Below are positions 25,691-53,129 of a stretch of 58,029 nt of DNA, piece after piece. The stretch lies in NCBI GenBank assembly GCA_047621685.1, contig JBLHNG010000003.1:1-58029 (forward strand). Direction: 5' to 3'. The notes beneath the pieces were generated by a model. It did no database searches, was not told where the DNA came from, and worked only from the letters and a program-made list of their open reading frames with translations. This DNA comes from Myxococcota bacterium. GTDB taxonomy: Bacteria; Myxococcota_A; UBA796. Made by a program: the position numbers and the translations under genes. Position 1 is the first letter of the stretch, and each line of letters starts with the position of its first letter.

Positions 25691-26113
25691 TCAGGCCGAA
25701 GGCCGCAGCCGTGTGAGCCCAACCAGCACCCCAATCCCCACAACCCCGCCAATGTGCGGGGCGGCGGCGCTCACCGGATGGCCGGCGAGCAAGACGAGCA
25801 CCAGATCCGCCAGGGGCAGCAGCAGAATCAGCGGCAGCAGCCGACGCTGGGCGACGGGATGGGGGCGCAGCGCGAGCAGGGCGAGGCCGAGGATGAGGTC
25901 ACGGGTGCCGGTGGCCCGCACCCAGGTCGGTGCTTCAGAAGGCACCCCGTAAGTCTGAGAGGACCACTCCGGCGCAACCAGCGCCCCCGCCCCCAGACCG
26001 AGCAGGCCGATGGCCAGGGCGAGGGTGCCGAAGGAGATGAGCGTGTTGGTGGTGGAAGAGGTCACCAGAGGATCATATCGGCATTGTCGACGCAGTCGAG
26101 GATCAGGCAACAC
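25691..26113 (-). CDS. small hydrophobic membrane protein (DUF4267-like)
   Basis: Four hydrophobic segments. A shorter start at GTG 26065 is equally possible. Confidence 0.55.
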   Translation of the reverse strand: MLPDPRLRRQCRYDPLVTSSTTNTLISFGTLALAIGLLGLGAGALVAPEWSSQTYGVPSEAPTWVRATGTRDLILGLALLALRPHPVAQRRLLPLILLLPLADLVLVLLAGHPVSAAAPHIGGVVGIGVLVGLTRLRPSA

Positions 26114-26221
26114 CGCACCTGGGCGAGACCTTCCGATCAGGCCGAAAAATCAGCGACTCAATCGAGCGCTGTGTACACTGAATTCAAGTCAACATCCGGT
26201 AATTTCAATCAGGAACAGTCC

Positions 26222-28715
<2,494 letters not shown>

Positions 28716-28738
<23 letters not shown>

Positions 28739-38596: not shown

Positions 38597-40888
38597 TCAA
38601 GGCACCATCAGCCGAAACATCCCCATGTCCTCCGCCAGCACCGCCGCCCGCCAGGAACCAACCGGGTCCGCAGGGTCCGCATACAGACGCTCCATCAGCG
38701 CACGGCTGTCAGCATCATCGACCGGAATCGTCGCGGCAATGACCGCCTCCCCGCCAGCCAGCAGAAACGCCTGAGCCAGCCCGAGACTCTCCACCGCAAC
38801 CGGGGGAGAGGCTGCACCATCGCAGGTCGAGAGGACAACGGTCTGCGGTGCGCGAGACAGGGTCAGCAAATCACCGACGGTCAGCCGACCGCCGCCGTTG
38901 ACCAGGAACGCGCTGTCGGTCACGATGTTCTCGCGCTCACCATGCCCGGCATAGTGCAGCATCGCGGTGTCTTCCAGCAGCAACAGCAGCGACCTGCGGG
39001 TGACATCGCTGCCCGAGAGCGGGCGCACGACCCTGCCCGCCCGGGTCAGCGCGCCAGTAACCAACGCGGCCTCCGCCCGTGCCCCGGGCAGGTTGAGCCG
39101 GGGATCACTGACGACTGCCGCAGTGTTCTCGATCGGGCGCGGGGGTCGTGGCGGCAGATCGAGGCTATAGCGGACAAGATGATGGGCCAGCAGCGGGCGC
39201 CCCTGGAGCGGGAGCATGTGCAGGTCGATGCGCCTCAGCGTGCCATGTGGCAGCAGCGTGATCACCTCGGCGGATGCGATCTGCTCGGCAAACGGCACCA
39301 GCAGCGCCTCGGCGAGGATCTCTGGAGGAGCGTTGAGGTCGACGGAGGGAATCCGGGCAGTGGTCAGTCCCTCCGAGCTGGCCGCGATCCCCACCCAGTC
39401 CGACCCCAGTGAGAACCACGTCAGCAGCAGCTCGCCGGGATCCGGAGAACGAAGCGAGGCCTCGGGGAGGATGTGCGGGGTGCCAGCATCGAGGGCCTGG
39501 CGGGCAAGCTCCTCCTGCCGACGACGCAGGATCGTCAGGACACGGTTCTGCTCACTGGTGGCCGACCAGTCTCCGGGGGTCACCGCCTCCCGGGCGACGC
39601 GGTAGTCGCGTGCCGCCGACAGCCACCGCTCCCGATCTTCCACGGAGAACCGCTCGGTGAGCAGCCCCTGGAGGAGGAGGAGCCGAGCGGTCCGGATCAC
39701 CACGAGAGCGTCTTCAGGCCGATCGTCCGCCAGCAGCAGGGTCACCAGCAGCCGGTCGGCGGGCAGTCCCCGACTCAAGAAACGATCCCGGCCGTTGTGG
39801 AGTGGGACCAGGAGGCTGTGCTCCAGCAGGACCGCGCGGGCCTCCTTGAGCACCGCGATGGCCTCCGCATGCTGCCCCAGCGACGCCAGGATCTCTCCCT
39901 GGGCCACCAGCGCCTGCCAGCGATGACGCGGAGAGGCCGCACCCGTCGATGCGATCACCCCTTCCATCGCCGAGAGCGCCTCGCCGAGCTGGCCGCGGTG
40001 CTGGTGAAGGCGCCCACGCAGATACGCCGCCCACAGCGTCTCGTCGTGGCGTTCTGGTGCGGCGCTGTTGAGGGCCGACTCCAGGGCATCCAGGTCGCCG
40101 AACTCAAGCGCATCGCGGGCTTGAGTGAGGTGTGTGCGAGAGATCGAGGGACAGTCGATCACTCCCGACAGCTCGATCTCCACCCCGCTCAGCTCAGCGG
40201 CCTCCACCAGCACCCAGCCCCGAGACTCCTCTGCCGCACAGCCATCCTCCGACCGGAGGATCCGGCGCGCCTCCCGGTGGCGGCCCACCGCCGCGAGCTG
40301 CTCCGCCAGCCGAAGCGACACCGGAGTGTTTACGCTGTAAATCATCCGGCCTGAAAGCTGGTTCGCATGACGATAGTGCCTCATCGCGGCCCGATGGTCC
40401 CCCCGGTAGCCCGCCAGATCCCCACGACGGAGCTGGAGCTGCCAGGCAGAGGTCAGATCGCCCGGGAGCCGATCGGTGATGCGCTGGAGGTGTGCTTCCG
40501 CAGTCCCCACATCCCCGTCCGCGATCGCGGCATCGACCTCGGAGAGCCCGGCGAGCACCTGCTGCCGTGTGTCGGTCGTCCCGGTCGTCTTCCCCAGCAG
40601 AAGCCGGCCGATCCGACCGTTGTTGTCCTCGATGACCAGTGTCTCTGCGCCAGACGGCACCGCGACATCCAGCAGCACCCCGCCCCCCTCGATCTGCGAC
40701 ATCGCGCCGACCGGCTGGCCGTCCACCATCACCGACAGCGGCGGCAGGGCCTCGACCCACAGGCGCACCGGCGTGCTCCCCGGCAGACACCGCGGCCCGG
40801 TCGTCACCGCCACACAGCCGTCGAACATCAACGGCAGCGTCGGTGGGTCGGGGGTCTGCATGCAGCTGAGCAGGACGAAGAAGATCAT
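38597..40888 (-). CDS. TPR-like repeat + CHAT (caspase-like) protease domain lipoprotein
   Basis: ATG 40888 overlaps the upstream stop (ATGA). Lipobox MIFFVLLSC. The C-terminal dyad context is LHYAGHGE and VVLSTCDGA. Confidence 0.85.
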   Translation of the reverse strand: MIFFVLLSCMQTPDPPTLPLMFDGCVAVTTGPRCLPGSTPVRLWVEALPPLSVMVDGQPVGAMSQIEGGGVLLDVAVPSGAETLVIEDNNGRIGRLLLGKTTGTTDTRQQVLAGLSEVDAAIADGDVGTAEAHLQRITDRLPGDLTSAWQLQLRRGDLAGYRGDHRAAMRHYRHANQLSGRMIYSVNTPVSLRLAEQLAAVGRHREARRILRSEDGCAAEESRGWVLVEAAELSGVEIELSGVIDCPSISRTHLTQARDALEFGDLDALESALNSAAPERHDETLWAAYLRGRLHQHRGQLGEALSAMEGVIASTGAASPRHRWQALVAQGEILASLGQHAEAIAVLKEARAVLLEHSLLVPLHNGRDRFLSRGLPADRLLVTLLLADDRPEDALVVIRTARLLLLQGLLTERFSVEDRERWLSAARDYRVAREAVTPGDWSATSEQNRVLTILRRRQEELARQALDAGTPHILPEASLRSPDPGELLLTWFSLGSDWVGIAASSEGLTTARIPSVDLNAPPEILAEALLVPFAEQIASAEVITLLPHGTLRRIDLHMLPLQGRPLLAHHLVRYSLDLPPRPPRPIENTAAVVSDPRLNLPGARAEAALVTGALTRAGRVVRPLSGSDVTRRSLLLLLEDTAMLHYAGHGERENIVTDSAFLVNGGGRLTVGDLLTLSRAPQTVVLSTCDGAASPPVAVESLGLAQAFLLAGGEAVIAATIPVDDADSRALMERLYADPADPVGSWRAAVLAEDMGMFRLMVP

Positions 40889-41646
40889 CGCTCGGAGATG
40901 ATGACCTCGCGCTTCCAGAAGGTCCACTGCGGCGGGGGCTCCTCTGCTGCTGCGTCCAGGGTGTCTTCGGAGAAGGTCGCGTGCCACCCCCGGATCGGGA
41001 TCGCGCGCTCCAGGGTGCTGACGGGCCCCGCCGGTCCGACTCCGATCAGCAGGGTGTGGGGCCCAGAGGCCAACGCCAGGTCCTCACCGACGATGCCCCC
41101 CAGTCGGTGTGCGCCGTTGCTGGAGGAAACGTCCAGGTCCATCGGCGCCCACCCATCCGGGCCACGGGTGAACACCACGACCTGTGTGGAGCTGTCGGGC
41201 TGGGTGCGGGGTCGGAGGATGAGGCGCATCCGGGAGCCGATCGAGTAGGCCATGACCTCGTCTGGATCGGAGTCGCTCAGGGAGCGCTCGGGCAGATCAC
41301 CGGGGCGGGCGATCAGCCGATAGACCGGCGGCTCTGCGGACGGCGTGCTGGCGACATACCCGAGCCGCACCACCATCACTGCCGCCATCACTGCCACCAG
41401 ACGCGGCAGCCAGGGCCACCACCGACGGCGCGGTTTCTGCGGCACCCGAGGGGGTGGAATCACGGCCAGCTCTGCACGAATCCGACGTGCAAAGCCAGAT
41501 CCGAGGGGAGCCAGGGCGATCGCAGCAGCCGGGTCCGACTCCGCGAGCGCCGCTGCCTCCTCCGCGCTCAGCTCCCCGGCAGCCAGCTGATCCCAGCGGG
41601 CGTCGAGGTGCTCCATGTCGATCTCATCATCCAGGTCTCGTTTCAT
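40885..41646 (-). CDS. single-pass membrane anti-sigma-factor-like protein
   Basis: Lies 3 nt downstream of the sigma gene. It has a short acidic cytoplasmic N-terminus, the TM segment WWPWLPRLVAVMAAVMVV, and a roughly 150-aa extracytoplasmic domain. Confidence 0.6.
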   Translation of the reverse strand: MKRDLDDEIDMEHLDARWDQLAAGELSAEEAAALAESDPAAAIALAPLGSGFARRIRAELAVIPPPRVPQKPRRRWWPWLPRLVAVMAAVMVVRLGYVASTPSAEPPVYRLIARPGDLPERSLSDSDPDEVMAYSIGSRMRLILRPRTQPDSSTQVVVFTRGPDGWAPMDLDVSSSNGAHRLGGIVGEDLALASGPHTLLIGVGPAGPVSTLERAIPIRGWHATFSEDTLDAAAEEPPPQWTFWKREVIISER

Positions 41647-41649
41647 GCC

Positions 41650-42327
41650 TCACCCTGCCTCGGCCCGAAGCCGCATCAGTTCCTGCCTCAATGCCTCGAC
41701 CAGTCGGCGACGCCACTGGTAGATCGCCGCCGCGCTGCGACCGGTCTGCTCCTCGATGGCCGACACCGGGAGCCCCTCCAGAAACAGCAGCCGCATCATC
41801 TCTGTGCCCAGCGGATTCTGGACCGACCCCACTGCCGCAAAGCACCGCATCAGCAGGTCTCGGCGGATCAGGGCGTCCTCCAGTCCCATCTCACTCGCCG
41901 TCTGGGCCAGGATCTCCCCGGACAGCAGCGTCTCGGTCTTCCAGCGCTGCCGCAGCAGGGAGATCGTGCGCCGCCGGGCCACCACGCCGATGAAGCCGAC
42001 CAGCGGAACCCCGTGGCGGCTCGACCAGGTCCGGAGGATCCGGCAGTCGTCCTCGAACAGCGACAGGCTGATCTCCTGCACCAGGTCCTCGACCTCCATC
42101 CGGAGGTTGTGTCGGACCGACGCTGGGCCATGGCGAAGCACCGCTCGGGCGACCCGGGCGTGGATCACCGGCAGCAGGCAGATCACCAGACGCTCCCTTG
42201 CGATGGTGTCGCCGCGAAGCGTCTCGACCAGGAGCTGCTCAGGGGTGTTGGACATCACCGCCTTCGTTGTAGGGGAGGCCTCAGCCGTCGGCCCGGCCCA
42301 GGCAAACAGCGCCCGGAGCGTGCTCAT
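41650..42327 (-). CDS. ECF-type RNA polymerase sigma factor
   Basis: ATG 42327 overlaps the upstream stop (ATGA). Region 2 DLVQEISLSLFED and region 4 LLFLEGLPVSAIEEQTGRSAAAIYQWRRR. Confidence 0.8.
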   Translation of the reverse strand: MSTLRALFAWAGPTAEASPTTKAVMSNTPEQLLVETLRGDTIARERLVICLLPVIHARVARAVLRHGPASVRHNLRMEVEDLVQEISLSLFEDDCRILRTWSSRHGVPLVGFIGVVARRRTISLLRQRWKTETLLSGEILAQTASEMGLEDALIRRDLLMRCFAAVGSVQNPLGTEMMRLLFLEGLPVSAIEEQTGRSAAAIYQWRRRLVEALRQELMRLRAEAG

Positions 42328-42626
42328 GGCTCGAACCGATAGCCCACACCATAGACGGTCTGGAGGTGATGGGGGTGGCGAGGATCCGTCTCCAGCTTGC
42401 GCCGAAGTCGCTGAATGGTGGCGTATACCGTTCGTGATTGCGTCCCCGGCAGGTAGCCCCACACCTCCTCAAGCAGCTCAGCCTGGCTGAACAGCTCCCC
42501 GGGATGCCGCGCAAACCACTGCATCAGCCGGTGCTCGGTCCGGGTCAGCCGGAGGATCTGATCCGCGCGGCGGATCTCACGCCGCCTCAAGTCGATCTCC
42601 GCATCATCCAGGGCAATCACATCCAC
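42324..42626 (-). CDS. stand-alone OmpR/PhoB-type winged-helix DNA-binding domain protein
   Basis: LTRTEHRLMQWFARHPGELFSQAELLEEVWG...TVYATIQRLRRKL...LQTVYGVGYRF. No receiver domain. GTG start with AGGAGG 6 nt upstream. Confidence 0.8.
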   Translation of the reverse strand: MDVIALDDAEIDLRRREIRRADQILRLTRTEHRLMQWFARHPGELFSQAELLEEVWGYLPGTQSRTVYATIQRLRRKLETDPRHPHHLQTVYGVGYRFEP

Positions 42627-42698
42627 ACCTGACCTCCTGGCAACCCCTTCGCCAGCAGGACCGGTTTTCTGACAATCGTCTCTGAGAAAGTTGAGCGA

Positions 42699-44159
42699 CT
42701 ACAGATCACACCCGGTGAGAAGCGCGGGATCACGGGTCACCACGATCGGGGTGGCTTTCACCTCCAGGTGCTCAGCATCCTGGGTGGTGACCTCACCAGA
42801 GGCGCCGTCCATGACCCACAGCGTGCCGGAGAGCTGAGGGGAGAAGTCGATGGTGGCTGTGTGGACCCGATCCGACCACAGCAGGTAGACCGGTCCGAGC
42901 GCCTCTCCGACCGCCATCTCACCGGGGAAGCCCAGCTCATCGAGCGGCTCGCGGGTGATCGCCCGACCGCTCAGCGCCACGCCATTCACCCCGTCAGCCG
43001 GCGCGATGGTTCGGCGATACTCAGTGTCCTTCAGCCCGCAGATGACCCCCTCAAGGGCATAGGGCAGGTCCACATCGTCGCCCGCCAGCCAGCCGTCCCA
43101 GTCAAACGAGAACGCGACCTCTCCGGGGTGAGCCGCCTCCCATGTCTCAAAGCGCTCCAGCACCAGGGAGTCGGTGGCCGGCTCAGCGAGACCATCGAGG
43201 CGGGTCAAGGCGCCCAGCTCCCGGATCAGGCTCTCCACCGGGAGGCGGTTGGCTGCGTTGAGGTCGAGGTGGGTCATGACGCCGAACTGCCAGACGATCT
43301 CGTCGGACCCACTGAGCGCCTGCTGCCGACGCTCGGCCTCCAGCACCAGCAGGTGGCGGCGGATCTGATCCGGGGCGGAGTAGATCGCGTGGTGTCCCTG
43401 CGGGGGTTCCTGGGAGATCTGCCCCAGCGCGCTGGTGGTGATCGACTGCCCCTCGGGATCCGAGCCGGTGTAGGTCCCGGCCGCGCGGCGATAGGGGGTG
43501 AGCGGCTTGATGTTCCAGGGGGTGTACGACAGGCGCTCCCCGAGGTTGTGGCTGACCTCGATGCCGTACTCCACCTCCAGCGCATCCAGGAGGGCAAGCT
43601 GCGCGGGGGTGTCGATCCCGGTCGCGGCGTCCACTCGGAGCGGTGCCTGCCCGACAGCGGCCTCGAACGCGGCGACATGATCTGCCCAGGTCTGCCGCAC
43701 CCAGGACTCGCTCGCCTCATTCGCTTCGTACTCCAGCCAGCCGCTCCCACCCGGCTCCAGCAGGAAGCGGTGAAAATGAACCGACAGCTCGTGGCCGGTG
43801 TCGAGCAGGTCGTGGAGGTGGGCGGTGTCGTCGTATCGAATGGCGTCGAGGGCATACTCGCCGTTGATCTGCACGCTGAGGAGCATGCCCTCGGACTCCG
43901 CCAGCTCGGCCAACCAGAGCAGCTCGGTCTGGTGAGCGTCGTAGCGTTCTTCCCTCCGCGCCTCGACCTCGTCACCGGTCGTGTCGAGGCCGTAGTTGTG
44001 ACCATGCACACTGATCGTCAGCAGGATGGGCTCCGCAGACCACTCCTGCTCCTCAACCTCCAGCTCCGAGCAACCAGAGACAAACATCAAGCCAGGGACG
44101 AGCATTTTGATCACCAACCACCTCCTGAGTTGAAGGTTAGTCGGGGTTGTCCGCGTCAT
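42699..44159 (-). CDS. lipoprotein, unknown function (possibly a deacetylase/GH57-like metal-dependent fold)
   Basis: Lipobox GLMFVSGC. His-rich motifs ISVHGHNYG and SVHFH. The functional guess is weak. Confidence 0.65.
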   Translation of the reverse strand: MTRTTPTNLQLRRWLVIKMLVPGLMFVSGCSELEVEEQEWSAEPILLTISVHGHNYGLDTTGDEVEARREERYDAHQTELLWLAELAESEGMLLSVQINGEYALDAIRYDDTAHLHDLLDTGHELSVHFHRFLLEPGGSGWLEYEANEASESWVRQTWADHVAAFEAAVGQAPLRVDAATGIDTPAQLALLDALEVEYGIEVSHNLGERLSYTPWNIKPLTPYRRAAGTYTGSDPEGQSITTSALGQISQEPPQGHHAIYSAPDQIRRHLLVLEAERRQQALSGSDEIVWQFGVMTHLDLNAANRLPVESLIRELGALTRLDGLAEPATDSLVLERFETWEAAHPGEVAFSFDWDGWLAGDDVDLPYALEGVICGLKDTEYRRTIAPADGVNGVALSGRAITREPLDELGFPGEMAVGEALGPVYLLWSDRVHTATIDFSPQLSGTLWVMDGASGEVTTQDAEHLEVKATPIVVTRDPALLTGCDL

Positions 44160-44378
44160 TTTCGAAAGGAATCACACAAGAATTCGACAGAATGTTCTCT
44201 GAAACGATGCCGCTTCGCCGAAGGCGTTGCAAGCCGTTTCAGGGATCGCCAATCCAAAGAATCATTGTATAATCACAACTTGTGGGCTGCTGCTGCCCTG
44301 ATTCTTGCTCTTTTTGAGCCTTGCCAGACGGGCTTCTGGCACCTCTAAAGTAGACCGCTCCCAACCCCGGGCCTCCCC

Positions 44379-44771
44379 ATGCTCCTCCTCCTCGCCTGCT
44401 TCACCAGGACCGACCCACCGACCGAGCATGCCTCCACCCATCCCGATGCCAACAGCCGCCCCCAGCTCTCCAAGATGATGATGCTCACCGGCGACCTCAA
44501 GGCGCAGCTCTGCGACCTGCCATGCAGCGGTCCCTTCACCGACCTCCAGATCTGGCGCGACGGAGACGCCGGTCCGCTCGCCCTCATCACCCACACCGGC
44601 GACCTGGAGGCCTGCTCCCATCCACCGACAACCTGGCTGGACACCCGGGGCGAGGTCCGGCTCGTCCAGGAGTCGCGCCCAGTGGGTCCGGCAGAAGCGG
44701 AGGCGCTGGCGGAGGAACGCAGCGCCCTGACGACAGGGCTCATCAAGGCGGAGCGCCTGTCCTGTGATTAG
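44379..44771 (+). CDS. small lipoprotein, unknown function
   Basis: Lipobox MLLLLAC. 130 aa with good GC3. Confidence 0.6.
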   Translation: MLLLLACFTRTDPPTEHASTHPDANSRPQLSKMMMLTGDLKAQLCDLPCSGPFTDLQIWRDGDAGPLALITHTGDLEACSHPPTTWLDTRGEVRLVQESRPVGPAEAEALAEERSALTTGLIKAERLSCD

Positions 44772-44780
44772 GCTCACCGG

Positions 44781-45500
44781 GTGCCGTTCACCCTCGCCCA
44801 TCCCGCTGCGATCCTGCCGCTGCGCTGGCTGCTTCCCGGGCTGCCTCTGGTCGGCCTGATCATCGGCGCGATGGTGCCGGACGTGCTGTACTTCATCGCC
44901 CTTCGCCCCACCGGCACCCTCGGACACACCCTGCCCGGAGTGCTGCTCCAGGGCGTGCCCGCCGGGCTGATCCTCGCTGGGCTGTGGTGCAACCTCATGC
45001 ACGCCCCGATGGTTCGCCTCCTGCCGGCCCCGCTCGCTACCCGCGTCCCGCCGCCGACTCCGCTCCGACTCCCGGGGGTGCCGAAGATGGCGGTCGCGAT
45101 CGCGCTGGGGGCCTGCACGCACCTGCTGTGGGACGGCTTCACCCACCGCACCGGCTTCGCGGTGGCTCGATGGCCGGTGCTCACAGAGACGGTGGGGCCG
45201 CTGCCGCTCTACAGCCTGCTCCAGCACGGCTGCGGGGTGCTCGGGCTGCTGGTCCTCGCCGGGGTGGCCGGACTCGGCCTGTCTCGCCAGCCGGTCCGCT
45301 CCGTGAGCCCACATCCCCGTCGAGGCATGCTCGGGGTCGGGCTCATCCTCGGCAGCCTCGGCATGACGGTCTGGGCGGCGGCTGGTGTTGATGGGGTGAA
45401 TGCGATCATCGTGCGCGGGGTCATCGGGGCAGTCAGCGGACTCTACCTCGCCGCCCTCCTGACTTCGGTGTGGATCAGGCTCACCACACCGAAGGGGTGA
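44781..45500 (+). CDS. DUF4184 family membrane protein
   Basis: N-terminal PFTLAHPAAILPL, and HLLWDGFTH later. GTG start. Confidence 0.75.
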   Translation: MPFTLAHPAAILPLRWLLPGLPLVGLIIGAMVPDVLYFIALRPTGTLGHTLPGVLLQGVPAGLILAGLWCNLMHAPMVRLLPAPLATRVPPPTPLRLPGVPKMAVAIALGACTHLLWDGFTHRTGFAVARWPVLTETVGPLPLYSLLQHGCGVLGLLVLAGVAGLGLSRQPVRSVSPHPRRGMLGVGLILGSLGMTVWAAAGVDGVNAIIVRGVIGAVSGLYLAALLTSVWIRLTTPKG

Positions 45501-45502
45501 AG

Positions 45503-45613
45503 CTCAGCAGCAGCCGCAGAACGAACACAGCCCGGTCGCTTCTGCAGCCAGGGCCAGCCCGGGAACCACAAGCATTCCGCCGATTGCAACACGTCGAATC
45601 CAGTTCTTAATCA
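45503..45613 (-). CDS. 36-aa secreted Cys-rich peptide (not in the ORF track)
   Basis: My own translation gives MIKNWIRRVAIGGMLVVPGLALAAEATGLCSFCGCC. The ATG is preceded by AAGGAGA with 6-nt spacing. Signal-peptide-like N-terminus with ALA-AE. Confidence 0.5.
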
Positions 45614-45707
45614 TCACGCTCTCCTTCGAGCCGGTTTGTGGGTGGCTCGGAGGGGATAGGCGCGTCGACCATAAAGCGTGACAGCGAGTCTGCGAATCAG
45701 ACCAGCA

Positions 45708-46583
45708 CTACTTCGGCGGCACGCTGTTCGCTTCCATCCACTCCAGCAGCGCCTCGGAGAGCCCTTCAGACCAACCGTGCCCCTGGAGGTCCATGACCCA
45801 GTCCGTGAACGTGACGGTGTGACCTTCCTCTTCGAGGATCTCAGCCGTCTCGACAGACAGGCTGTAGTCGACGACCTGATCGTCTGGATCGTGGGCGAGG
45901 TAGATGGGCAGCTTCCGGACGGGTGCCGGATCGGGGTAGTCGAAGCGACTGCCCAGTCCGCCGCTGGAGACGATGCCCATGGCGGTAAACCGGTCCGGTG
46001 CGGTGACCCCCAGCCACATCCCGACGAAGCCCCCTGCGGAGTTGCCCACCCACCAGGTCCGCCCCTCGTCGAGGTCCAGGCTCTCCCACAGGGTGTCGAT
46101 GAGCGGCTCGATCCAGTCGGCGTCGTCGTAGGACCAGCTGTGAAGCTCCTGGCCGCCCTCGATCACCCCGGGTGCCACGAAGACGTAGCCCTCAGCGATG
46201 GCGAGGTGGTGGAGGCTGGTGCCGGTCGGGTCGGACCAGTCCTCAAAGAAGTTACCGGGACTCTGCCCGCCATGCCCCCACAGCAGCAGCGGTGCACAGG
46301 CAGGCAGCCCCTCCGGCACCCGAACCCAGACCGGCACGCCGTCCTGCTCAATGAAGTGGTCGCCCGCAGCCAGCCCGCTCCCGCCGGTGCAGGAAGAGGC
46401 GGTGTCGGTGGTGTCGGTGGTGTCGGTGGTGTCGGTGGTGTCAGTATCAGCGGTGTCTGTGTCGGCGGTGTCGGCGATGTCAGTATCCGCAGTGTCCGTA
46501 GCGGTGTCGTTGTCGACCTCGCCGGTGCCAGTGCAGCCGAGGATGAGTGCGGTCAGGGTGAGCATTGGGCCTCCTGACCGCAC
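45708..46583 (-). CDS. esterase lipoprotein (alpha/beta hydrolase, PHB-depolymerase/feruloyl-esterase-like)
   Basis: Lipobox LTALILGC, a (T/A-D)n linker, and nucleophile elbow GNSAGG. The start may be the ATG at 46565. Confidence 0.8.
   Translation of the reverse strand: MRSGGPMLTLTALILGCTGTGEVDNDTATDTADTDIADTADTDTADTDTTDTTDTTDTTDTASSCTGGSGLAAGDHFIEQDGVPVWVRVPEGLPACAPLLLWGHGGQSPGNFFEDWSDPTGTSLHHLAIAEGYVFVAPGVIEGGQELHSWSYDDADWIEPLIDTLWESLDLDEGRTWWVGNSAGGFVGMWLGVTAPDRFTAMGIVSSGGLGSRFDYPDPAPVRKLPIYLAHDPDDQVVDYSLSVETAEILEEEGHTVTFTDWVMDLQGHGWSEGLSEALLEWMEANSVPPK
46401..46515. repeat. 6/12-nt tandem repeat encoding (D-T/A)n
   Basis: (ggtgtc)n on the plus strand, inside the esterase gene. Confidence 0.85.
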
Positions 46584-46591
46584 GATAACCG

Positions 46592-47380
46592 CTACCAGGG
46601 CTGGGCCAGTCGCTGACCGCCCTGGACCTTGGTGGACTCCAGCAGCGTGTCACCTGGGAAAGTGCCAGCGTATGTGGGCACGTCGTCCTTGTCGTTGAAG
46701 GTCATCACGACCTTGTCCTGCATGTAGGTCGTCCCCGAGTCGGACTTCAGGAGCATCTCCAGCTCGAACTTACCAGCACCGACATCGCTCTTGGTGAACG
46801 CTGCGCTGTGGCCCTGGGCGGTGGTGATGTCGAGGTCGATGGTGGCAGAGGACACGTCTTGAGTGGGGCTGATCCGCCGGGTGGTGACCGTCATGTCCTG
46901 GCTGGCGCCGTCGTCGCTGCTGGCCTTGTAGCTCGCCTTGAAGGTGTCGCTGTTGGAGGCATCCCAGCCAAAGGTGAGCAGCCAGTCGGGCACCGGCATG
47001 GGATGGGTGATGCGATCGAAGATGAAGGTGGAGTCTGCGGCTGGGACATCGAAAAACGCCGAGCGCCGCATCCGGACCACGCTGTCCCATGGGGCCACGT
47101 TGGTGCCGCCGGTCATCTGCCACCGGACCTCGACGGTGTCGCCAGTCGTGACAGTGACGGCGCTGGAGGCGGTCATCGCGCGGGTGGCGTTGCTGAAGGA
47201 GAGAGTCGCCTGCTGGCTGCCGTTGACCAGGATCTTACCGACCAGTCCGCTGGGATTCCAGCCAGCAAGACCAGGGTTTATCAGCGCAGACGGGCTGACC
47301 AGGGTCAGGGTTCCAGCTTTGATATCAACCTTGACGCGCATAATAATCGACCCGAGGGGCCACTCATTCTCACTAGACAT
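46592..47380 (-). CDS. hypothetical cytoplasmic beta-rich protein (262 aa, no Cys)
   Basis: Starts 19 nt downstream of the CHAT gene on the same strand. Ser/Thr/Val/Asp-rich with no signal peptide and no recognisable motif. Confidence 0.65.
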   Translation of the reverse strand: MSSENEWPLGSIIMRVKVDIKAGTLTLVSPSALINPGLAGWNPSGLVGKILVNGSQQATLSFSNATRAMTASSAVTVTTGDTVEVRWQMTGGTNVAPWDSVVRMRRSAFFDVPAADSTFIFDRITHPMPVPDWLLTFGWDASNSDTFKASYKASSDDGASQDMTVTTRRISPTQDVSSATIDLDITTAQGHSAAFTKSDVGAGKFELEMLLKSDSGTTYMQDKVVMTFNDKDDVPTYAGTFPGDTLLESTKVQGGQRLAQPW

Positions 47381-47399
47381 TCTGTGCCTCGATTACAGT

Positions 47400-49823
47400 T
47401 CAGTAGACGATTGGAGCAGCCCAGATCCGGGCTGGCAGCCCCTCACGGCGGAGCTGTTGGCAGACCAGAGCGGTGACCCGGGCTGGATCGTTAAACGGCC
47501 AGTGAGTCATCATGCACTGCACAAAGCGCCCCATCTCGCGGTCCTGGACCGGCCATCGGGTGGCGATCACTGCGGATGCACCCGCGCTGAGGAAAGCGCC
47601 GGCCATCGACCGCTCGACACCTCGGTGCAGCGCTGAGGCACCGGTCGCGCAGCCCGACAGCAGCACGATGGGGTTGCCGGAGAGCGGAAGGTTAGAGATC
47701 TCAGGTGGCCCGATGAGGCCGTCGGCCATCACCAGCAAGGGCATGCCACGCTCTCGGCGGGAGTGAACGCCGATGTGCAGCAGGCCGACCGGGGGAAGCT
47801 CCAGGAGCGCCCGGTGGGTCACCTCGCTTCGGCGGAGGAACACATCTGCCGAGGCAACCTCCGCATCTGCCATCGGGAGGTCTCCGTGGGCGTCCGCCAG
47901 ACTGGCGACCGCAGCCGGCAGCACCATGGGCTGTGCGCCTCGGCGACGACGGGGACCCGCGAGATCAATGAACTGCGGGGGACGGGCATCGCCGACCTGT
48001 GCAGCGATGTACGGCATCGGAGCGTTTGCCAGCAGGCTATTGCTGCCCAACAGGATCTGTCCTGTCGGGATCCCATCGGGGAACAGGATCTCAGCCAGCC
48101 GGATGGCAACCCTGGGGGTTCCGCCTGTGAGGGCTTCCTGCTGGCTGGTGTGGACCAGGCGCAGGAACTCATCCCGACTCATGCGGATGTTTCGGACCGA
48201 TGCTCCGGGCTGACCGCTGAGCACCAGCAGTCCCTGGGGCACCGCGAGGATCCCCATCAGCGAGATCCGATCGTCTGCGGCATCTGCGGTGTGCAGGAAG
48301 TACAGGCGCATCAGGTGACGGGCAGCAGCAGCATGAGCCTCGATGGCCAGATTCAGCAGCGCAATCAGGGTGTGCAGCGTGCTGGCATGGACCCGACCGT
48401 CATCGTGTTGGTGCAGCTCGTCCTCAACGGCGGTGATGACCTGCGCCCAGTCGGTCACGCGACCAGAGCGCTGCGTGACCAGGATCCGGAGCAGGATCCA
48501 GCTCAGCCCTCGACTGCTGAGGGTCTTCAGCTGCTCGACCTCTTCGTTGAGCGCCTGCAGCCGGACCTGAGCCTCAGAGAGCTGTCCGCTGCCGACAAAG
48601 GCCTCGATGAGGTAGCCGCGGGCCTCCATCGCGCTGTACGGAGACAGCTTGTCGATCCAGGGAGCATTCAGGGACCGGAGGGCGACATCGTAGAGACCGA
48701 GCGCGACGTTGAGGCGCAGGCCGATCTGTCCCAGGCGCGCGACCTCTTCAGGGGCGGCAATCTGTGCCATCGCCAGCCACCGGGCCGCGGCCTCCAGCTC
48801 CCAATTGTTCAGTGCTGCCTGGGCCTGCTCCCGGCAGACCCAGGCGGCGTTTCGGTTGTCCAGGGCCACCCGACGGACGAGCGCCTGAAGCACCGACTCC
48901 GCAGCGGGCTGAAACTGGAGACAGTTCAAGGCAATCGCCAAACCCAGCGCCGCCTGAATCTCACCGGCAGTGTCCTTGACTTCTATCCCCCGCTCCAGCG
49001 CCTCCCGATAGAGACGAGACGCTTCAAAAAAGCTGCCCCGCTGGCCCAATTTTCCCGCTCTATAGATCAGCGCGATGGTCTCTTCATCCGCCGGCTTGAG
49101 CCGCTCCGCCGTATACAACACCCGGACATCGGAGGGCTCAAAGCCGGTGTCGAGGTTTAGCTCTGCGGCGTGCAGGCAGTGCTCGGCGCCCTGGAGGAGG
49201 TCTGTGAGGCTCGTGGAGTCGTGGGAGCGGTAGACGTCAGAGAGCCACAACCCCCAGAGGATGGGATCGACGGCCTGGGAGGAGGACAGCGCGACGATGC
49301 GGCGCGTGCCCTCAGGCAGGTGGGCCAGCTCCAGAGACACACCAGGGCGCTCCCGGCTGAGCTGGTGGACCAGGATCGGCGGCCCACCCTGCATCACCGC
49401 GTAGAGCAGCAGATGACAGGCCAGGGGATCGTGAGCCAGGGCCCCGCGCTCGGTCCGGTGAAGCTCCAGCGCGCCCTGAGAGCGATAGTTTCGGTAGAGG
49501 CTCTGAGAGGTCATCTCCGGAAACGGTGCCAACCCCTGGGTCTGTGCCAGCAGGAGGGCGGGAGCCGGAGGAGCGGTGCGAGCTGCCGTCCGGGCCTGGA
49601 GCGCCTTGAGGGAAGGCGGCTTCGGCATGGAAGCAACCACGGTCGACTCGCGGACCATCGCACCGAGCTGCCCAAGCTGCTTCTCTAGTTGGAGCTGGCC
49701 CTGACACTCACTGCAGCCCTGAGCGTGCTGACGTGCCGGTGCGGGCCAGACTCGGAATCCGGTCCACTCCAGGGTTCCCTGGAGAATTTGCTCTTCAATC
49801 AACTTGTGGGTCAACTCAGTCAT
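47400..49823 (-). CDS. zinc anti-sigma (ZAS, HxxxCxxC) N-terminal domain fused to TPR-like repeats and a CHAT protease domain
   Basis: ATG 49823 overlaps the sigma stop (ATGA). H33-AQG-C37-SE-C40. C-terminal LHIGVHS and IVLLSGCATG dyad context. No signal peptide or TM segment. Confidence 0.85.
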   Translation of the reverse strand: MTELTHKLIEEQILQGTLEWTGFRVWPAPARQHAQGCSECQGQLQLEKQLGQLGAMVRESTVVASMPKPPSLKALQARTAARTAPPAPALLLAQTQGLAPFPEMTSQSLYRNYRSQGALELHRTERGALAHDPLACHLLLYAVMQGGPPILVHQLSRERPGVSLELAHLPEGTRRIVALSSSQAVDPILWGLWLSDVYRSHDSTSLTDLLQGAEHCLHAAELNLDTGFEPSDVRVLYTAERLKPADEETIALIYRAGKLGQRGSFFEASRLYREALERGIEVKDTAGEIQAALGLAIALNCLQFQPAAESVLQALVRRVALDNRNAAWVCREQAQAALNNWELEAAARWLAMAQIAAPEEVARLGQIGLRLNVALGLYDVALRSLNAPWIDKLSPYSAMEARGYLIEAFVGSGQLSEAQVRLQALNEEVEQLKTLSSRGLSWILLRILVTQRSGRVTDWAQVITAVEDELHQHDDGRVHASTLHTLIALLNLAIEAHAAAARHLMRLYFLHTADAADDRISLMGILAVPQGLLVLSGQPGASVRNIRMSRDEFLRLVHTSQQEALTGGTPRVAIRLAEILFPDGIPTGQILLGSNSLLANAPMPYIAAQVGDARPPQFIDLAGPRRRRGAQPMVLPAAVASLADAHGDLPMADAEVASADVFLRRSEVTHRALLELPPVGLLHIGVHSRRERGMPLLVMADGLIGPPEISNLPLSGNPIVLLSGCATGASALHRGVERSMAGAFLSAGASAVIATRWPVQDREMGRFVQCMMTHWPFNDPARVTALVCQQLRREGLPARIWAAPIVY

Positions 49824-50398
49824 GGCTGTTGTTCCTCAAGCGCAGCTCGGAGCAGCACTCGGATTCGATGAAGTCGGCTTCGCACAGCCAATGGACTCAG
49901 CGGGGGCTCCAGCTGGGCTGCAATCTCCGCAGGCTTCAGCTGCTGCTCGACACTCATCCAAAAAATCATGGGATCAGGCGGCTCCAGGAAGCGAACCACG
50001 TCGAGGATGCTGCGAGCGGTCTCGTCGCGCTGGACGGGGTCGGGCATCTCATAGGAGGTGGTAAACCGGGCGAGATAGCGCGCCTGACGTTCCGCATGGC
50101 GCTGTGTGTTCCGACGGACCCGCATCGCCTCGTAGCGGGCGAAGGTCGCAAGCCAGCCGCCCAGACTGCGCCCATCAAACCGCTGCCAGTTCTCCAGCAT
50201 CAGGGCGAAGACATTCTGGAGCTGCTCCTCGGATTCCTCCTGAGAGAACCCCTTTCGCAGAAAGATCGCCATCAGCTCTGGCCCATGAACCTCCCAGGCA
50301 AGCGGAACCACCGGCCCCACATCTCCGCTCGCAACAGCTTCATCGAGCAGACGTCTCAGCTCATCCGGTGACCGATACATGGGAGAACTCTGACTCAT
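49820..50398 (-). CDS. ECF-type RNA polymerase sigma factor (divergent)
   Basis: ATG 50398 overlaps the receiver-gene stop (ATGA). Region-2-like LQNVFALMLENWQRFDGRSLGGWLATFARY and region-4-like KPAEIAAQLEPPLSPLAVRSRLHRIRVLL. Confidence 0.7.
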   Translation of the reverse strand: MSQSSPMYRSPDELRRLLDEAVASGDVGPVVPLAWEVHGPELMAIFLRKGFSQEESEEQLQNVFALMLENWQRFDGRSLGGWLATFARYEAMRVRRNTQRHAERQARYLARFTTSYEMPDPVQRDETARSILDVVRFLEPPDPMIFWMSVEQQLKPAEIAAQLEPPLSPLAVRSRLHRIRVLLRAALEEQQP

Positions 50399-50826
50399 TC
50401 GGAGTGTGCAGACTCCGCGCTGATCAGATTTCGCAGGTGGGAGAACGAGAATGGCTTGCACAGGATCGGTCGGCCGAGGGTCTTGAGGTGTGCCTCGGTG
50501 TCCCAGGAGCATCCGCCGGTCATGAACACCGTCCGAGACTGCTGCTCTGGGGACAGGCGGGCGTAGAACGTCGGGCCATCCATCACCGGCATGACGACAT
50601 CAGAGACGATCATGTGTGGAGTGCCATGCACTGCGATGTCGGCGAGGGCATCGACAGCGGATGCGAACAGGCTGACAGAGTAGTCCTCAAGCAGCTCCCC
50701 GAGCAGCATCCGAATCACCGGGTCATCATCGACAACCAGGACTCGAAGGGACGCCTGGGGCATCTGACAGTGATGACTTGATGATGGCTGTGGAGACACC
50801 TGCTCCCTCCGGTTTAAGGCGTTCAT
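50395..50826 (-). CDS. stand-alone response-regulator receiver domain protein
   Basis: RVLVVDDDPVIRMLL...MIVSDVVMPVMDG...VFMTGG...CKPF. ATG 50826 overlaps the upstream stop (ATGA). The ATG at 50763 is an alternative start. Confidence 0.8.
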   Translation of the reverse strand: MNALNRREQVSPQPSSSHHCQMPQASLRVLVVDDDPVIRMLLGELLEDYSVSLFASAVDALADIAVHGTPHMIVSDVVMPVMDGPTFYARLSPEQQSRTVFMTGGCSWDTEAHLKTLGRPILCKPFSFSHLRNLISAESAHSE

Positions 50827-51536
50827 AGTAAGCCCAGGGCGCTGTTGATTTGGTTCTCGAGGCCATCGAAGGCCTGACGAATCTGGCGGAGCTTGTCAGA
50901 CAGGGTCTGAAGCTGGGCCGCTGACAGGAAGCTGAGTCGATCCAGATCACCAAACAGCAGCCCCTCTCTGGTCACTGCCTGCTCCAGCCGATTGATCTCG
51001 GTGACGAAGGCCGGTGGCTGTGGAGGAGACGGGCGAAGGGCACGCACCTCAGCCTCCAGCTGCCGAACGGTCCAGCATCCATTCTCTGCGCGCTTCAGCA
51101 ACCTCAGCTGGTCGTCATCTGAGATCGAGAGCACTGCGCGAAAGTGCGACACCCCGAGGTTGGACCAGTCTTCCCCGATGCGCTGGAGCAGGGCGTAGAT
51201 CTGCATCGAGCGGTGGAGGACCGAGCGGCTGATGGCCACCCCATTGATCCGGGTCAGCTTCGCCAGCTTTCGGATCGAGGCCTCCTTGGCTCCCCGAGCA
51301 CGCCAGGCCTCAAGATCACCGTCGTAGAGATCCTCGATGAGGATCCGGCCGACGTTGAGATGGAGCTGAAGCCCGGAGAACCGGACCATTCGGCCAAGTC
51401 GCATCGCGGTGCGCTTGCACTCGACATCGGAGAAATCAGAGGAGAGCCCGGGGGCGGCTTCCTGAACAGGTTCTATGTTTGGTGGACTCACATATAGACA
51501 GAGCCAAAGTCGCCCTATCGTTGCACGCCTTGACAC
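50823..51536 (-). CDS. putative DNA-binding protein (ParB-HTH-like)
   Basis: GVSHFRAVLSISDDDQLRLLKRAENGCWTVRQLEAEVRAL resembles the ParB/KorB HTH region. The first 44 codons have low GC3, so the true start is probably ATG 51404. Confidence 0.55.
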   Translation of the reverse strand: MSRRATIGRLWLCLYVSPPNIEPVQEAAPGLSSDFSDVECKRTAMRLGRMVRFSGLQLHLNVGRILIEDLYDGDLEAWRARGAKEASIRKLAKLTRINGVAISRSVLHRSMQIYALLQRIGEDWSNLGVSHFRAVLSISDDDQLRLLKRAENGCWTVRQLEAEVRALRPSPPQPPAFVTEINRLEQAVTREGLLFGDLDRLSFLSAAQLQTLSDKLRQIRQAFDGLENQINSALGLL

Positions 51537-51575: not shown

Positions 51576-53129
51576 CTATTGATCGATGCTGGCATTCAGC
51601 TCAAAGCCGGTGATGGTCTGAAGCTCAGCGGTCTGTGCGTCGTAGAAGCTCAGCCGCCCCAGCTCGTGCGCCTGGCTGGCGTAGGCGGTGTGAGAGCCTG
51701 GGAAGACCCCGATGTGCGCCGGGTTGCTGAGCAGGTTGATCTCATCGAGCAGCATCGCGTCGAGGTCCACCGACTCCAGGTAGGGCAGGTCTTCGAGGTA
51801 GAAGAAGGCGTACTGCCCATCTTCTGAGAAGGTGATCCCGGCGGGAACGGCGGACAGCCGGAGGGCGTTGGTGAAGTAGTCGTCGAGGTCGACGATGGTG
51901 ATCGCTGGCGCACCCTGAAACGGGGAGTCCTCGTCGATGTCCTTGTGGTCTTCCTTTGGATGGACGATCAGCGCTGAGCGCACCCCGGGGGCCATGTGAA
52001 CGCTCTCGATGGACTTGACGGTGCCGTGGGTGGTGAACGCATCGGTCTGGTCGGGGGCCAGGAGATCCCAGCTGACAAACCGCGGCTCCCCGGCGGCGGT
52101 GCTGTAGAGGATGGCGGTGTCTCCGGTGTCGGAGATGCTGATGCTGCCGAGCACGGTGTCGACGGGCAGGGGCATGACCTCCGGCAGCGCCTCCGGCACG
52201 GCGAGGTCGTAGATCCACACCTCTGAGGATCCCCGGGCCACTGCCATCGCCCGGGTGCCATCGGGGGTGACATCGAGGTCGGTGGGGTTGTCTCCGGCGG
52301 CCAGGACATCGGTCTCTCCGCTGACGAGATCGACGAGGATGAGGTCGGAGACTCCGTACTGCCGCACGATGGCGTACTGCCCGTCGGGGGTGACCAGGAC
52401 CTCCTCGGCCTCCGGTGGCTCCACGGTGTCCTCGATCTGGATGCGGGTCAGCACCGGCTCGTCTCCGCGCAGGTCGAGGTGGACCAGCCAGGAGTCGGAG
52501 ACCAGCACGGCGTCCCCGGTCTGCGAGAACTGGATCTGTGCCGGCTCGAAGCCCACCGACTGCGGCCAGTCCACCCCGCTGGTGATGTCCACCACGCTGA
52601 CCTCGCTGTAGGACCATGCACCGCTGGTGTCGTGGTCGGCGGGGGCCTCGGCCTGGTAGTAGCACAGCGCCCAGCGGCCATCGGGGGAGAGCTGGAGCTG
52701 GTTGAGGTGGGGGCGAATGGGCACCGCCTGGAGCTCCAGGCTGGTGGCGTCGACGATGTGGACCTCATCGAGTCCGGTGTCGAGGATGACCACCGCACCA
52801 TACGGATCCGAGGCGACCATGACCGAGGGGTTGGGGCCGATCTCGGCGGTCAGGGCGGAGAGGTCGGCGATGGAGACCCGGGTCAGCGAGTTGCGGTCGG
52901 GGTTGGCGATGTAGATGTTGTCGTCTACTGCGACCGGCTCCAGGGCGATGTAGGGGGACTCCTCCTCAGGATCGTAGCCGTCGTCGTAGGTGTCGGTGTC
53001 GGTGTCGGCGTCGGTGTCGGCGTCGGTGTCCGCATCGGTGTCGCTGTCGCTGTCGGCCTCATCGCTGGACACGGAGGCGGCGTCCTTGCCTTTACACGAC
53101 AGGAGCATCAAGAGGGTGATTGCACGCAT
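51576..53129 (-). CDS. beta-propeller lipoprotein (YncE/lactonase-like repeats)
   Basis: Lipobox LLMLLSC, a (D-S/T/A)n linker, and repeated ...SPDG..A.V... blades. Confidence 0.75.
   Translation of the reverse strand: MRAITLLMLLSCKGKDAASVSSDEADSDSDTDADTDADTDADTDTDTYDDGYDPEEESPYIALEPVAVDDNIYIANPDRNSLTRVSIADLSALTAEIGPNPSVMVASDPYGAVVILDTGLDEVHIVDATSLELQAVPIRPHLNQLQLSPDGRWALCYYQAEAPADHDTSGAWSYSEVSVVDITSGVDWPQSVGFEPAQIQFSQTGDAVLVSDSWLVHLDLRGDEPVLTRIQIEDTVEPPEAEEVLVTPDGQYAIVRQYGVSDLILVDLVSGETDVLAAGDNPTDLDVTPDGTRAMAVARGSSEVWIYDLAVPEALPEVMPLPVDTVLGSISISDTGDTAILYSTAAGEPRFVSWDLLAPDQTDAFTTHGTVKSIESVHMAPGVRSALIVHPKEDHKDIDEDSPFQGAPAITIVDLDDYFTNALRLSAVPAGITFSEDGQYAFFYLEDLPYLESVDLDAMLLDEINLLSNPAHIGVFPGSHTAYASQAHELGRLSFYDAQTAELQTITGFELNASIDQ
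52989..53058. repeat. 6/12-nt tandem repeat encoding (D-T/A/S)n
   Basis: (ggtgtc/ggcgtc)n on the plus strand, inside the propeller lipoprotein gene. Confidence 0.85.

Follow-up and report, generated by a model that had tools for sequence, protein, structure and literature searches.

A 58,029-nucleotide (nt) stretch from the genome of a Myxococcota bacterium (GenBank assembly GCA_047621685.1, contig JBLHNG010000003.1), here called the window, carries two gene modules that each combine a sigma factor of the extracytoplasmic function (ECF) type with a tetratricopeptide repeat (TPR)-CHAT protein. The window has a G+C content of about 67%, and codon-position G+C picks out a minus-strand gene run at 38.6-51.5 kb. 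An earlier note on this DNA had located the genes and named their domains, with an ECF sigma and a TPR-CHAT protein in each module. The positions it gave for the eight genes are correct, all of them on the minus strand, and matches to Trans_reg_C, Response_reg, CHAT, sigma and HTH_ParB models in Pfam and NCBIfam, together with TIGR02937 and family profiles, agree with its domain calls. It had skipped a fourth gene of module 1 (40885..41646), which encodes a membrane anti-sigma factor, had stopped short of the p262 gene that takes module 2 to 46592, and had overlooked an N-terminal H-x26-H-x3-C-x2-C motif in the CHAT protein of module 2. With these elements included, both modules are probably independent ECF sigma/anti-sigma cassettes of the DdvS-DdvA design, in which the anti-sigma function is coupled to TPR-CHAT. 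The modules and their core genes are as follows.

38597..42626, minus strand: module 1, in the order 5' to 3' winged helix-turn-helix (wHTH) protein, sigma 1, anti-sigma 1, TPR-CHAT 1
41650..42327, minus strand: ECF sigma 1, probable ATG start at 42255 (201 amino acids); TIGR02937 sigma70-ECF, E 1.3e-9
40885..41646, minus strand: anti-sigma 1, 253 amino acids, single-pass membrane protein; weak match to the NCBIfam anti-sigma model NF052375, E 1.2e-4
38597..40888, minus strand: lipoprotein TPR-CHAT 1 (CHAT1), 763 amino acids; Pfam CHAT, E 1.9e-23, and TPR families
38819..38956, minus strand: catalytic dyad region of CHAT1, HYAGHG (His645/His649) and STC(689)D
46592..51536, minus strand: module 2, in the order 5' to 3' ParB-like protein, receiver (REC), sigma 2, TPR-CHAT 2, p262
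49820..50398, minus strand: ECF sigma 2, 192 amino acids; Pfam Sigma70_r2, E 1.6e-5, and r4_2, E 8.5e-4; ATGA on both sides
47400..49823, minus strand: TPR-CHAT 2 (CHAT2), 807 amino acids; Pfam CHAT, E 1.5e-11
49704..49808, minus strand: zinc anti-sigma (ZAS)-like motif of CHAT2, His6 ... WPxxARxH33-x3-C37-x2-C40
47643..47777, minus strand: catalytic dyad region of CHAT2, HIGVH(687)S and SGC(725)AT, invariant in family alignment A5
46592..47380, minus strand: p262, 262 amino acids, all-beta, third core gene of module 2; starts 20 nt past the CHAT2 stop

ATGA stop/start overlaps join anti-sigma 1 to CHAT1, the ParB-like gene to REC, REC to sigma 2 and sigma 2 to CHAT2, and a 3-nt spacer separates the sigma 1 stop from the anti-sigma 1 start. 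The longest open reading frame (ORF) of sigma 1 also produces an ATGA at the wHTH/sigma 1 junction. Aligned with a 75%-identical relative, the window has 68 nt of poor conservation and then, at the sigma 1 start, a conserved GGCGGTGATG; other members of the sigma 1 family begin at the equivalent Met, so 42255 is most likely the translation start. The wHTH/sigma 1 overlap probably reflects no more than the choice of the longest ORF, and the real spacer is probably 68 nt. A 4-nt overlap at every junction, as the earlier note had it, is thus found at four junctions, and the description fails at sigma 1/anti-sigma 1 and probably at wHTH/sigma 1.

Both sigma factors consist of the sigma-2 and sigma-4 regions only, in about 190-200 amino acids, as in ECF (group 4) sigmas, and their profile matches are full length. 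Sigma 1 scores weakly in Pfam (E 6e-3) and more strongly against TIGR02937, and its family profile (A3) matches the Streptomyces ECF sigma ShbA (9isn_F) along its full length at E 7.7e-12. Sigma 2 matches TIGR02937 at E 1.4e-8, and its family profile (A8) matches CnrH (1.5e-10) and also SigE and RpoE.

Anti-sigma 1 has a hydrophobic helix at about residues 83-101 (peak hydropathy 1.9 in the 19-residue window from residue 83), and its predicted topology is a cytoplasmic N-terminus, one transmembrane (TM) helix and a periplasmic domain of about 150 amino acids. No zinc-binding (CHCC/HHCC) motif is present in its sequence. CHAT1 has the lipobox MIFFVLLSC (LLSC), and lipoboxes are kept in its homologues. 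The AlphaFold2 model of CHAT1 (predicted local distance difference test score, pLDDT, 78.7) comprises a beta-sandwich at the N-terminus, some 14 TPR-like helices and the CHAT domain, and the dyad columns (HYAGHG...C) are invariant in family alignments A1 and A9.

CHAT2 is organized differently, with the N-terminal putative HHCC zinc motif followed by a Pro-rich linker, a conserved domain of about 130 amino acids, a TPR region that matches LGN-type TPR proteins in a profile search, and the CHAT domain. Homology of the middle domain to the periplasmic domain of anti-sigma 1 was considered and rejected (hhalign probability 0.7%). There is no convincing hydrophobic helix in the first 200 residues of the module 2 CHAT family (KD19 maximum 0.5-1.6), and we therefore take the family to be cytoplasmic. 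Columns without variation across a 24-member alignment spanning 26-74% identity include H6, W26, P27, H33, C37 and C40 and also H683/H687 and C725; alignments A5 and A7 show the ZAS-like motif to be invariant as well. Searched with a profile made from the N-terminal 85 residues, the PDB gives only six matches at E<=10, among them DdvA (8rlz, E 0.31) and RsiW (5wuq, E 0.37), whose anti-sigma domains align with the CHAT2 N-terminus on the HxxxCxxC helix, a match that is not significant.

Conservation of the sigma-CHAT pairing

Relatives of module 1 numbered 10 in a word-indexed search and 80 loci in a metagenome scan, 49 of these with enough upstream sequence to be informative. Two relatives, L001 and L002, were left out as independent synteny evidence because they are close and collinear, with 75-88% nucleotide identity across flanking genes. 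A sigma 1-family gene adjoins CHAT in 48 of the 49 informative loci (44 just upstream on the same strand, 3 divergent and 1 elsewhere; 1 locus has none), and an anti-sigma 1-family ORF lies between sigma and CHAT in 39 of the 44. In five metagenomic loci no separate anti-sigma ORF is present and the CHAT ORF carries a long extension at its N-terminus; these extended ORFs may be fusions to the anti-sigma.

Such a fusion is found in Polyangium sp. 6x1, where the homologue P0008 is a 1052-amino-acid protein that combines anti-sigma, TM helix and TPR-CHAT in one chain. Its first ~230 residues align with the separate anti-sigma family (hhalign probability 95.5%, E 1.4e-8), a similarity that BLASTP alone does not detect between the P0008 N-terminus and the anti-sigma 1 family, and the gene upstream is a sigma 1 homologue (30% identity, E 1e-12). 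As a Rosetta-stone fusion, P0008 argues that anti-sigma 1 and the lipoprotein TPR-CHAT 1 work together.

Other genes occur around the module 1 family. A Peptidase_S8 (subtilase) gene often adjoins the CHAT gene in distant relatives (L003/L004 8898..10982, L005 12317..14398, L009 6297..8453, L007 1..1761); none is adjacent in the window. In isolated cases, a TIR_2-TPR protein is encoded 2 kb downstream of the locus (L006 9678..11525) and RusA/AHJR-like (prophage-type) genes lie downstream (L009 9479..10557).

For CHAT2, a word-indexed search returned only one relative, 74% identical; because its contig is collinear and comes from a close relative of the organism, we did not count it as independent. 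An exhaustive HMMER search returned 45 representatives at E<1e-30, most of them 760-820 amino acids long and colinear from about residue 5 to the end; the family comprises at least 45 clusters at 50% identity. The genome collection holds 11 full-length loci and 1 fragment, all in Myxococcota-like metagenome-assembled genomes (MAGs) of high G+C content. A sigma 2-family gene lies directly upstream of CHAT in every full-length locus, usually overlapping the CHAT start. The earlier note had proposed co-occurrence as a check on the pairing of ECF sigma with CHAT, and in both families (48/49 loci for module 1, 11/11 for module 2) the pairing is kept far beyond chance.

The p262 gene belongs to this conserved unit. 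A homologue lies directly downstream of CHAT in 10 of 12 loci of the module 2 family, the fragment included, and two further homologues, found independently, sit right after a CHAT gene of 771-787 amino acids. The family shares the motifs WP, KNG, PVPxxxLxFGWD, TIDL and YPxxFP, and the AlphaFold2 model of p262 (pLDDT 71.7) is all-beta with a disordered C-terminal tail. We found no family for p262 in Pfam, NCBIfam, PADLOC or PHROG and no significant structural neighbour in PDB or BFVD, the best PDB match being a DUF3823 beta-sandwich at E 0.03. Identity with a bacterial gasdermin or a known defence effector was rejected on the lack of any PADLOC, Pfam, PHROG or structural match. The CHAT2-p262 spacer is only 20 nt in the window, as against about 90 nt in four GC-rich relatives (L010, L011, L012 and L014), where it is AT-rich and contains TTGnnn-N17-TAGCTA/TAACTA followed by a TTGGCTCC-like sequence. 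This element may be a dedicated promoter/operator of p262.

Beyond the core genes, the flanks of module 2 vary from locus to locus (transketolase, molybdate transporter, GMC oxidoreductase, peptide permease). A defence-island context was rejected on these transketolase, transporter and oxidoreductase flanks, and a phage origin of the CHAT family on the lack of relatives on viral contigs. Some genomes have multiple copies, with three in MAG CALDOK01 (L011, L014, L015) and two in JBMOQZ01 (L016, L020), and in L017 (3228..8154) two CHAT2-like genes stand in tandem behind one sigma gene. The unrelated neighbourhoods and the several copies per genome would fit an autonomous module. Several of the MAGs (L010, L012, L017, L019) are labelled 'uncultured Enterobacterales bacterium'; at 67-73% G+C and with a Myxococcota-type cassette, they look wrongly labelled.

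The two modules themselves are only distantly similar. In BLASTP, CHAT1 and CHAT2 share 34% identity over a 170-amino-acid stretch of the CHAT core (E 3e-6), and sigma 1 gives no match to sigma 2 (E 0.27). Comparison of family profiles relates the CHAT proteins at 99.8% probability over 538 columns that cover TPR and CHAT (20% identity), and the sigma factors at 96.8% probability (16% identity). Judged by these alignments, the modules are remote homologues with superfamily-level kinship. Recent paralogy is rejected on both kinds of comparison, and the word 'paralogous' used in the earlier note overstates the relationship. The window holds no further copies of either module.

Relation to known systems

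The nearest known system is DdvS-DdvA of Myxococcus xanthus (Bernal-Bernal 2018, 2024; PMC6061681, PMC11506125; PDB 8ROT, 8RLZ), an autoregulated ECF sigma that is translationally coupled to a single-pass anti-sigma. DdvA comprises a CHCC zinc anti-sigma domain, a TM segment and a periplasmic TPR-CHAT region of about 900 residues (PMC6061681, PMC11506125), with C6, H28, C32 and C35 as zinc ligands (PMC11506125). Removal of TPR-CHAT exposes DdvA to RseP, and the 2024 cryo-electron microscopy and nuclear magnetic resonance study proposes signal-induced self-cleavage by CHAT in trans as the site-1 step before RseP (PMC11506125). The regulon of DdvS-DdvA is an adjacent antiviral island with CBASS and type III-B CRISPR-Cas; myxobacterial genomes hold several DdvA-like pairs each, most of them away from defence loci (PMC6061681, PMC11506125).

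Both modules of the window share with this system an ECF sigma gene directly upstream of the anti-sigma and coupled to it in translation, by ATGA in module 2 and across a 3-nt spacer in module 1, and an anti-sigma function linked to a TPR-CHAT whose His-Cys dyad is conserved. In module 2 the putative zinc ligands fall at the same positions in the structure as those of DdvA, the first of them at residue 6 and H-x3-C-x2-C where helices 2 and 3 meet. A membrane span followed by a periplasmic TPR-CHAT occurs in module 1 and in its fused Polyangium relative, and the fused protein shows the DdvA architecture. Structure comparison with AlphaFold2 and Foldseek, which covered CHAT1 of the two CHAT proteins, places DdvA and Csx29 about equal at the top, with separases behind. 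DdvA (8rot_A) matches the CHAT1 model at E 4.9e-13, with a TM-score of 0.42, a root-mean-square deviation (rmsd) of 9.4 and 16% identity; no other top match has so low an rmsd or so high an identity.

The modules differ from DdvS-DdvA in several respects. In module 1 the TM anti-sigma and the lipoprotein TPR-CHAT are separate proteins and there is no zinc motif, whereas module 2 lacks a TM helix, has HHCC in place of CHCC and includes p262 as a conserved third gene. A single TM polypeptide linking anti-sigma to TPR-CHAT is absent from both modules and occurs fused only in the Polyangium relative. Neither module has CBASS or CRISPR-Cas downstream. PDB searches with the sigma factors did not return the DdvS chain. 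The split form with a membrane anti-sigma and a lipoprotein, and the membrane-less ZAS-TPR-CHAT/p262 family, appear undescribed in the literature that we searched.

ECF54-type sigmas are a further point of comparison. They lie beside genes for CHAT proteins, subtilases and carboxypeptidases, have been proposed to be under proteolytic control, and form an actinobacterial group described as lacking an anti-sigma (PMC8999054). The modules resemble them in the conserved position of an ECF sigma beside a CHAT protein and, in several module 1 relatives, in a subtilase gene after CHAT; they differ in that both window modules have an identifiable, putative anti-sigma element.

The earlier note had drawn its parallel to the Craspase system (Cas7-11/gRAMP, Csx29, Csx30, Csx31, RpoE). 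DdvS-DdvA is the nearer parallel to the modules, and from it a CRISPR-free pairing of ECF sigma and CHAT was already known (PMC6061681, PMC11506125). The modules share with Craspase the genetic link between a cytoplasmic TPR-CHAT protease and an ECF sigma and the idea that proteolysis frees the sigma. They differ in that the window has no Cas7-11, CRISPR RNA or CRISPR array, and in that the anti-sigma element lies within or adjacent to the CHAT protein, not in a separate Csx30-type substrate. Csx29 (8eex_B) matches the CHAT1 model at E 2.3e-13 with a TM-score of 0.40, at an rmsd of 14.3 and 12% identity. In profile searches the Csx29 match is confined to the CHAT core, at E 5e-5 over about 87 columns for CHAT1 and E 0.5 for CHAT2, whose family profile places separase (2e-5) and TPR proteins ahead of it. 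The comparison with Csx29 that the earlier note had suggested thus reveals no specific kinship, the matches being no better than those to TPR proteins or separase.

We found no CRISPR-like repeat array in the window and no cas or defence families among its larger ORFs (Pfam and PADLOC scans), in line with what the earlier note had reported; the flanks of relatives yielded no such families either. Since the pairing is conserved and CRISPR-Cas is absent, its picture of a free-standing sigma switch linked to a protease describes the modules fairly.

In CalpL-CalpT-CalpS, a SAVED-Lon protease of type III CRISPR systems, activated by cyclic oligoadenylate, cuts an anti-sigma and so releases an ECF sigma. 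The modules share this cytoplasmic logic of a protease-gated anti-sigma and ECF sigma. The CalpL protease has a Lon and not a CHAT fold and depends on cyclic oligoadenylate and CRISPR, and the window modules have no SAVED domain.

Accessory regulators and surrounding genes

Three further genes stand at the heads of the two operons, and a short conserved stretch precedes the first gene of module 1.

42627..42690, minus strand: candidate promoter/operator and ribosome-binding site of module 1, from alignment of the window with L002
42324..42626, minus strand: wHTH, 100 amino acids, stand-alone OmpR/PhoB-type winged helix; Pfam Trans_reg_C, E 2.7e-24
50395..50826, minus strand: REC, 143 amino acids, single-domain receiver; Pfam Response_reg, E 6.5e-15
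50823..51536, minus strand: ParB-HTH-like protein, 237 amino acids, first gene of module 2; weak match to Pfam HTH_ParB, E 4.9e-4

About 60 nt 5' of the wHTH gene (ATTGTCAGAAAACCGGTCCTGCTGGCGAAGGGGTTGCCAGGAGGTCAGGTG) are near-identical in the window and L002 (6200..6266), and sequence farther upstream is unalignable; no promoter consensus was assignable in this stretch. The wHTH protein is also present in L002, a relative with 67% identity. It is a complete OmpR/PhoB effector domain that matches the C-terminal halves of MtrA, RpaB and PhoB (NCBIfam). REC keeps, on reading its sequence, the canonical DD acidic pocket, the phospho-acceptor Asp, the Thr and the Lys. The ParB-like protein has other weak matches, to an NCBIfam LmbU-family regulator (E 1.7e-3) and to PADLOC PDC-S02 (E 2.4e-5). 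It is a recurrent neighbour of the module 2 family, adjoining the sigma gene in 6 of 11 loci, mostly in divergent transcription.

The earlier note was right that module 1 has a wHTH without a receiver and module 2 a receiver without an effector, as Pfam confirms, and it went on to read the two as complementary halves of an OmpR-type regulator. Under that reading the wHTH-only and REC-only proteins would interact as a split response regulator and cross-wire both modules. Both single-domain proteins do exist, head their operons and look intact, and the wHTH is a full effector domain of the right type. The receiver is of another kind, however: its best NCBIfam matches are the receiver of EspA (1.2e-17) and those of EspC, DivK-type proteins, CckA, FixJ and RcsC, EspA and EspC being myxobacterial hybrid kinases. 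The OmpR-family models trail well behind, with OmpR itself in 15th place (E 8.8e-7) and RpaB at 3e-6. Neither domain co-occurs with the other across loci. The wHTH and REC are each missing from all 80 module 1-family loci, and among the 11 module 2-family loci wHTH is never found and REC lies nearby in just 2-3. The two genes also belong to separate operons 8 kb apart, and ORF scans found no histidine kinase in the window. We reject the split regulator on the receiver subtype and the missing co-occurrence; it is very improbable, and the idea can be dropped. The wHTH and REC are seen only in close syntenic relatives, and because neither belongs to the conserved modules we take them as lineage-specific. 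Together with the ParB-like protein, they are putative accessory regulators of the operons and do not pair up as parts of a single regulator.

The genes between the modules, which encode a 486-amino-acid lipoprotein, a DUF4184 protein (plus strand) and an esterase-like lipoprotein, appear unrelated to them. A search among GTDB species representatives found no close relative of the window, the best match being 35% identity for CHAT2.

Elsewhere in the window, a 207-nt tandem repeat at 56525..58029 (7.3 copies with 77% matches) continues past the end of the window, and its consensus encodes WYADNDGDTYGD-like units, which are repeats of the MopE type ('putative metal-binding motif'). A 994-amino-acid FG-GAP protein at 25754..28738 contains this motif six times. 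Short coding tandem repeats with periods of 6-15 (46400..46496, 52980..53057, 23809..23923) form Asp/Thr-rich low-complexity linkers just past the lipobox of several predicted lipoproteins (45708..46583, minus strand; 51576..53129, minus strand; 23736..24857, plus strand). Two eukaryotic-like Ser/Thr protein kinases are encoded on the plus strand at 801..4178 and 8553..10109, one of them fused to an AAA_16 ATPase domain; these kinases and the MopE, FG-GAP and WD40 proteins of the window are in keeping with a chromosome of myxobacterial type. A 787-amino-acid ORF at 30540..32903 (minus strand) has no Pfam match and atypical codon-position G+C (GC1 0.74, GC3 0.75). It overlaps a better-supported LPG_synthase_TM gene (32195..33109) in another frame and is only putatively coding.

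Proposed mechanism and alternatives

Building on the architecture and synteny described above, we infer how each cassette might operate. Module 1 would be an envelope sensor in which the cytoplasmic N-terminus of anti-sigma 1 binds sigma 1 and the periplasmic domain works with the lipoprotein TPR-CHAT. On a periplasmic signal, CHAT would make or control the site-1 cut of anti-sigma 1, and intramembrane proteolysis and release of sigma 1 would follow. Module 2 would be a cytoplasmic version, with an HHCC zinc anti-sigma domain fused to TPR-CHAT and coupled to sigma 2, which this domain would hold until a signal arrives. The TPR/middle domain, the zinc centre or p262 could pick up a cytoplasmic signal, which would then switch on the protease or cause the zinc domain to unfold and so free sigma 2. 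The domains, the topology signals, the conserved ligands and dyads, the coupling of the genes, their synteny and the Polyangium fusion are observed; that the N-terminal domains bind sigma and that proteolysis releases it is conjecture, as are the signals and the regulons.

Several observations weigh against this proposal. The identity of the CHAT2 N-terminus as a ZAS domain is suggestive, resting on the motif and a non-significant E of about 0.3, and the Pfam zf-HC2 model does not match it. The N-terminus of anti-sigma 1 matches no anti-sigma domain family above threshold. The DdvA TPR-CHAT chains (8ROT/8RW5) appeared in no PDB sequence search with CHAT1 or CHAT2, by single sequence or by profile. 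No sigma-dependent promoter is recognizable; an ECF-type promoter common to the sigma 2-family genes was rejected, since a two-block motif count upstream of them gave GC-rich background only and a consensus promoter/terminator scan stayed at chance level. Even for DdvA, proteolytic release is only proposed, and its dyad mutants behave like wild type in unstimulated cells (PMC11506125).

Two other explanations keep the gene associations and change the part played by the protease. The CHAT proteins, chiefly the module 1 lipoprotein, and p262 might be outputs of the sigma regulons and not parts of the switch, an envelope protease or beta-sandwich effector then serving other ends such as predation, development or protein processing. 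ECF operons often hold targets, and neighbouring genes may be regulators or targets (Casas-Pastor et al.); the frequent subtilase genes after CHAT in module 1 relatives, and the sigma-70-like promoter element that some p262 homologues have to themselves, fit such a role. Against it, the Polyangium fusion of anti-sigma and TPR-CHAT and the putative family-wide ZAS-CHAT fusion tie the protease to anti-sigma function, and the genes follow one another as sigma, anti-sigma and CHAT, with stops that overlap starts, in a near-invariant order. We consider this explanation unlikely.

TPR-CHAT could instead be only a signal-binding scaffold or steric block, with the sigma freed by another route, namely oxidation of the zinc centre in module 2, or another site-1 protease together with RseP in module 1. 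ZAS domains are classical redox- or zinc-dependent switches, the bulky TPR-CHAT of DdvA blocks RseP, and the lack of a phenotype of the DdvA dyad mutants in resting cells would be expected of a scaffold. The His-Cys dyad is, however, invariant in both families across 25-35% identity, and this argues for retained catalysis; a purely structural role is quite unlikely.

We therefore return to the DdvS-DdvA-type cassettes as our preferred interpretation. A more specific version for module 2, which we advance tentatively, is a self-contained cytoplasmic cassette, made up of the ECF sigma, the membrane-less HHCC-ZAS-TPR-CHAT, p262 and, in many cases, the ParB-like protein, whose protease senses an intracellular cue, cuts its own anti-sigma linker or p262 and so switches on the sigma regulon. 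If this is true, p262 would have a new fold and serve as substrate, pseudosubstrate or co-sensor, and module 2 would possibly be an alarm for stress or phage infection that needs neither CRISPR nor a membrane.

As two natural variants, the modules may ease the testing of CHAT cleavage in sigma release. The split envelope form has the protease on one protein and its presumed substrate on another, and cleavage could therefore be assayed in trans; the soluble cytoplasmic form has no membrane span and should be easier to purify and to reconstitute with sigma and p262. The module 2 family, along with its conserved partner p262, would extend the idea of a protease-gated sigma, so far represented by Craspase, CalpL and DdvA, to a setting independent of both CRISPR and the membrane.

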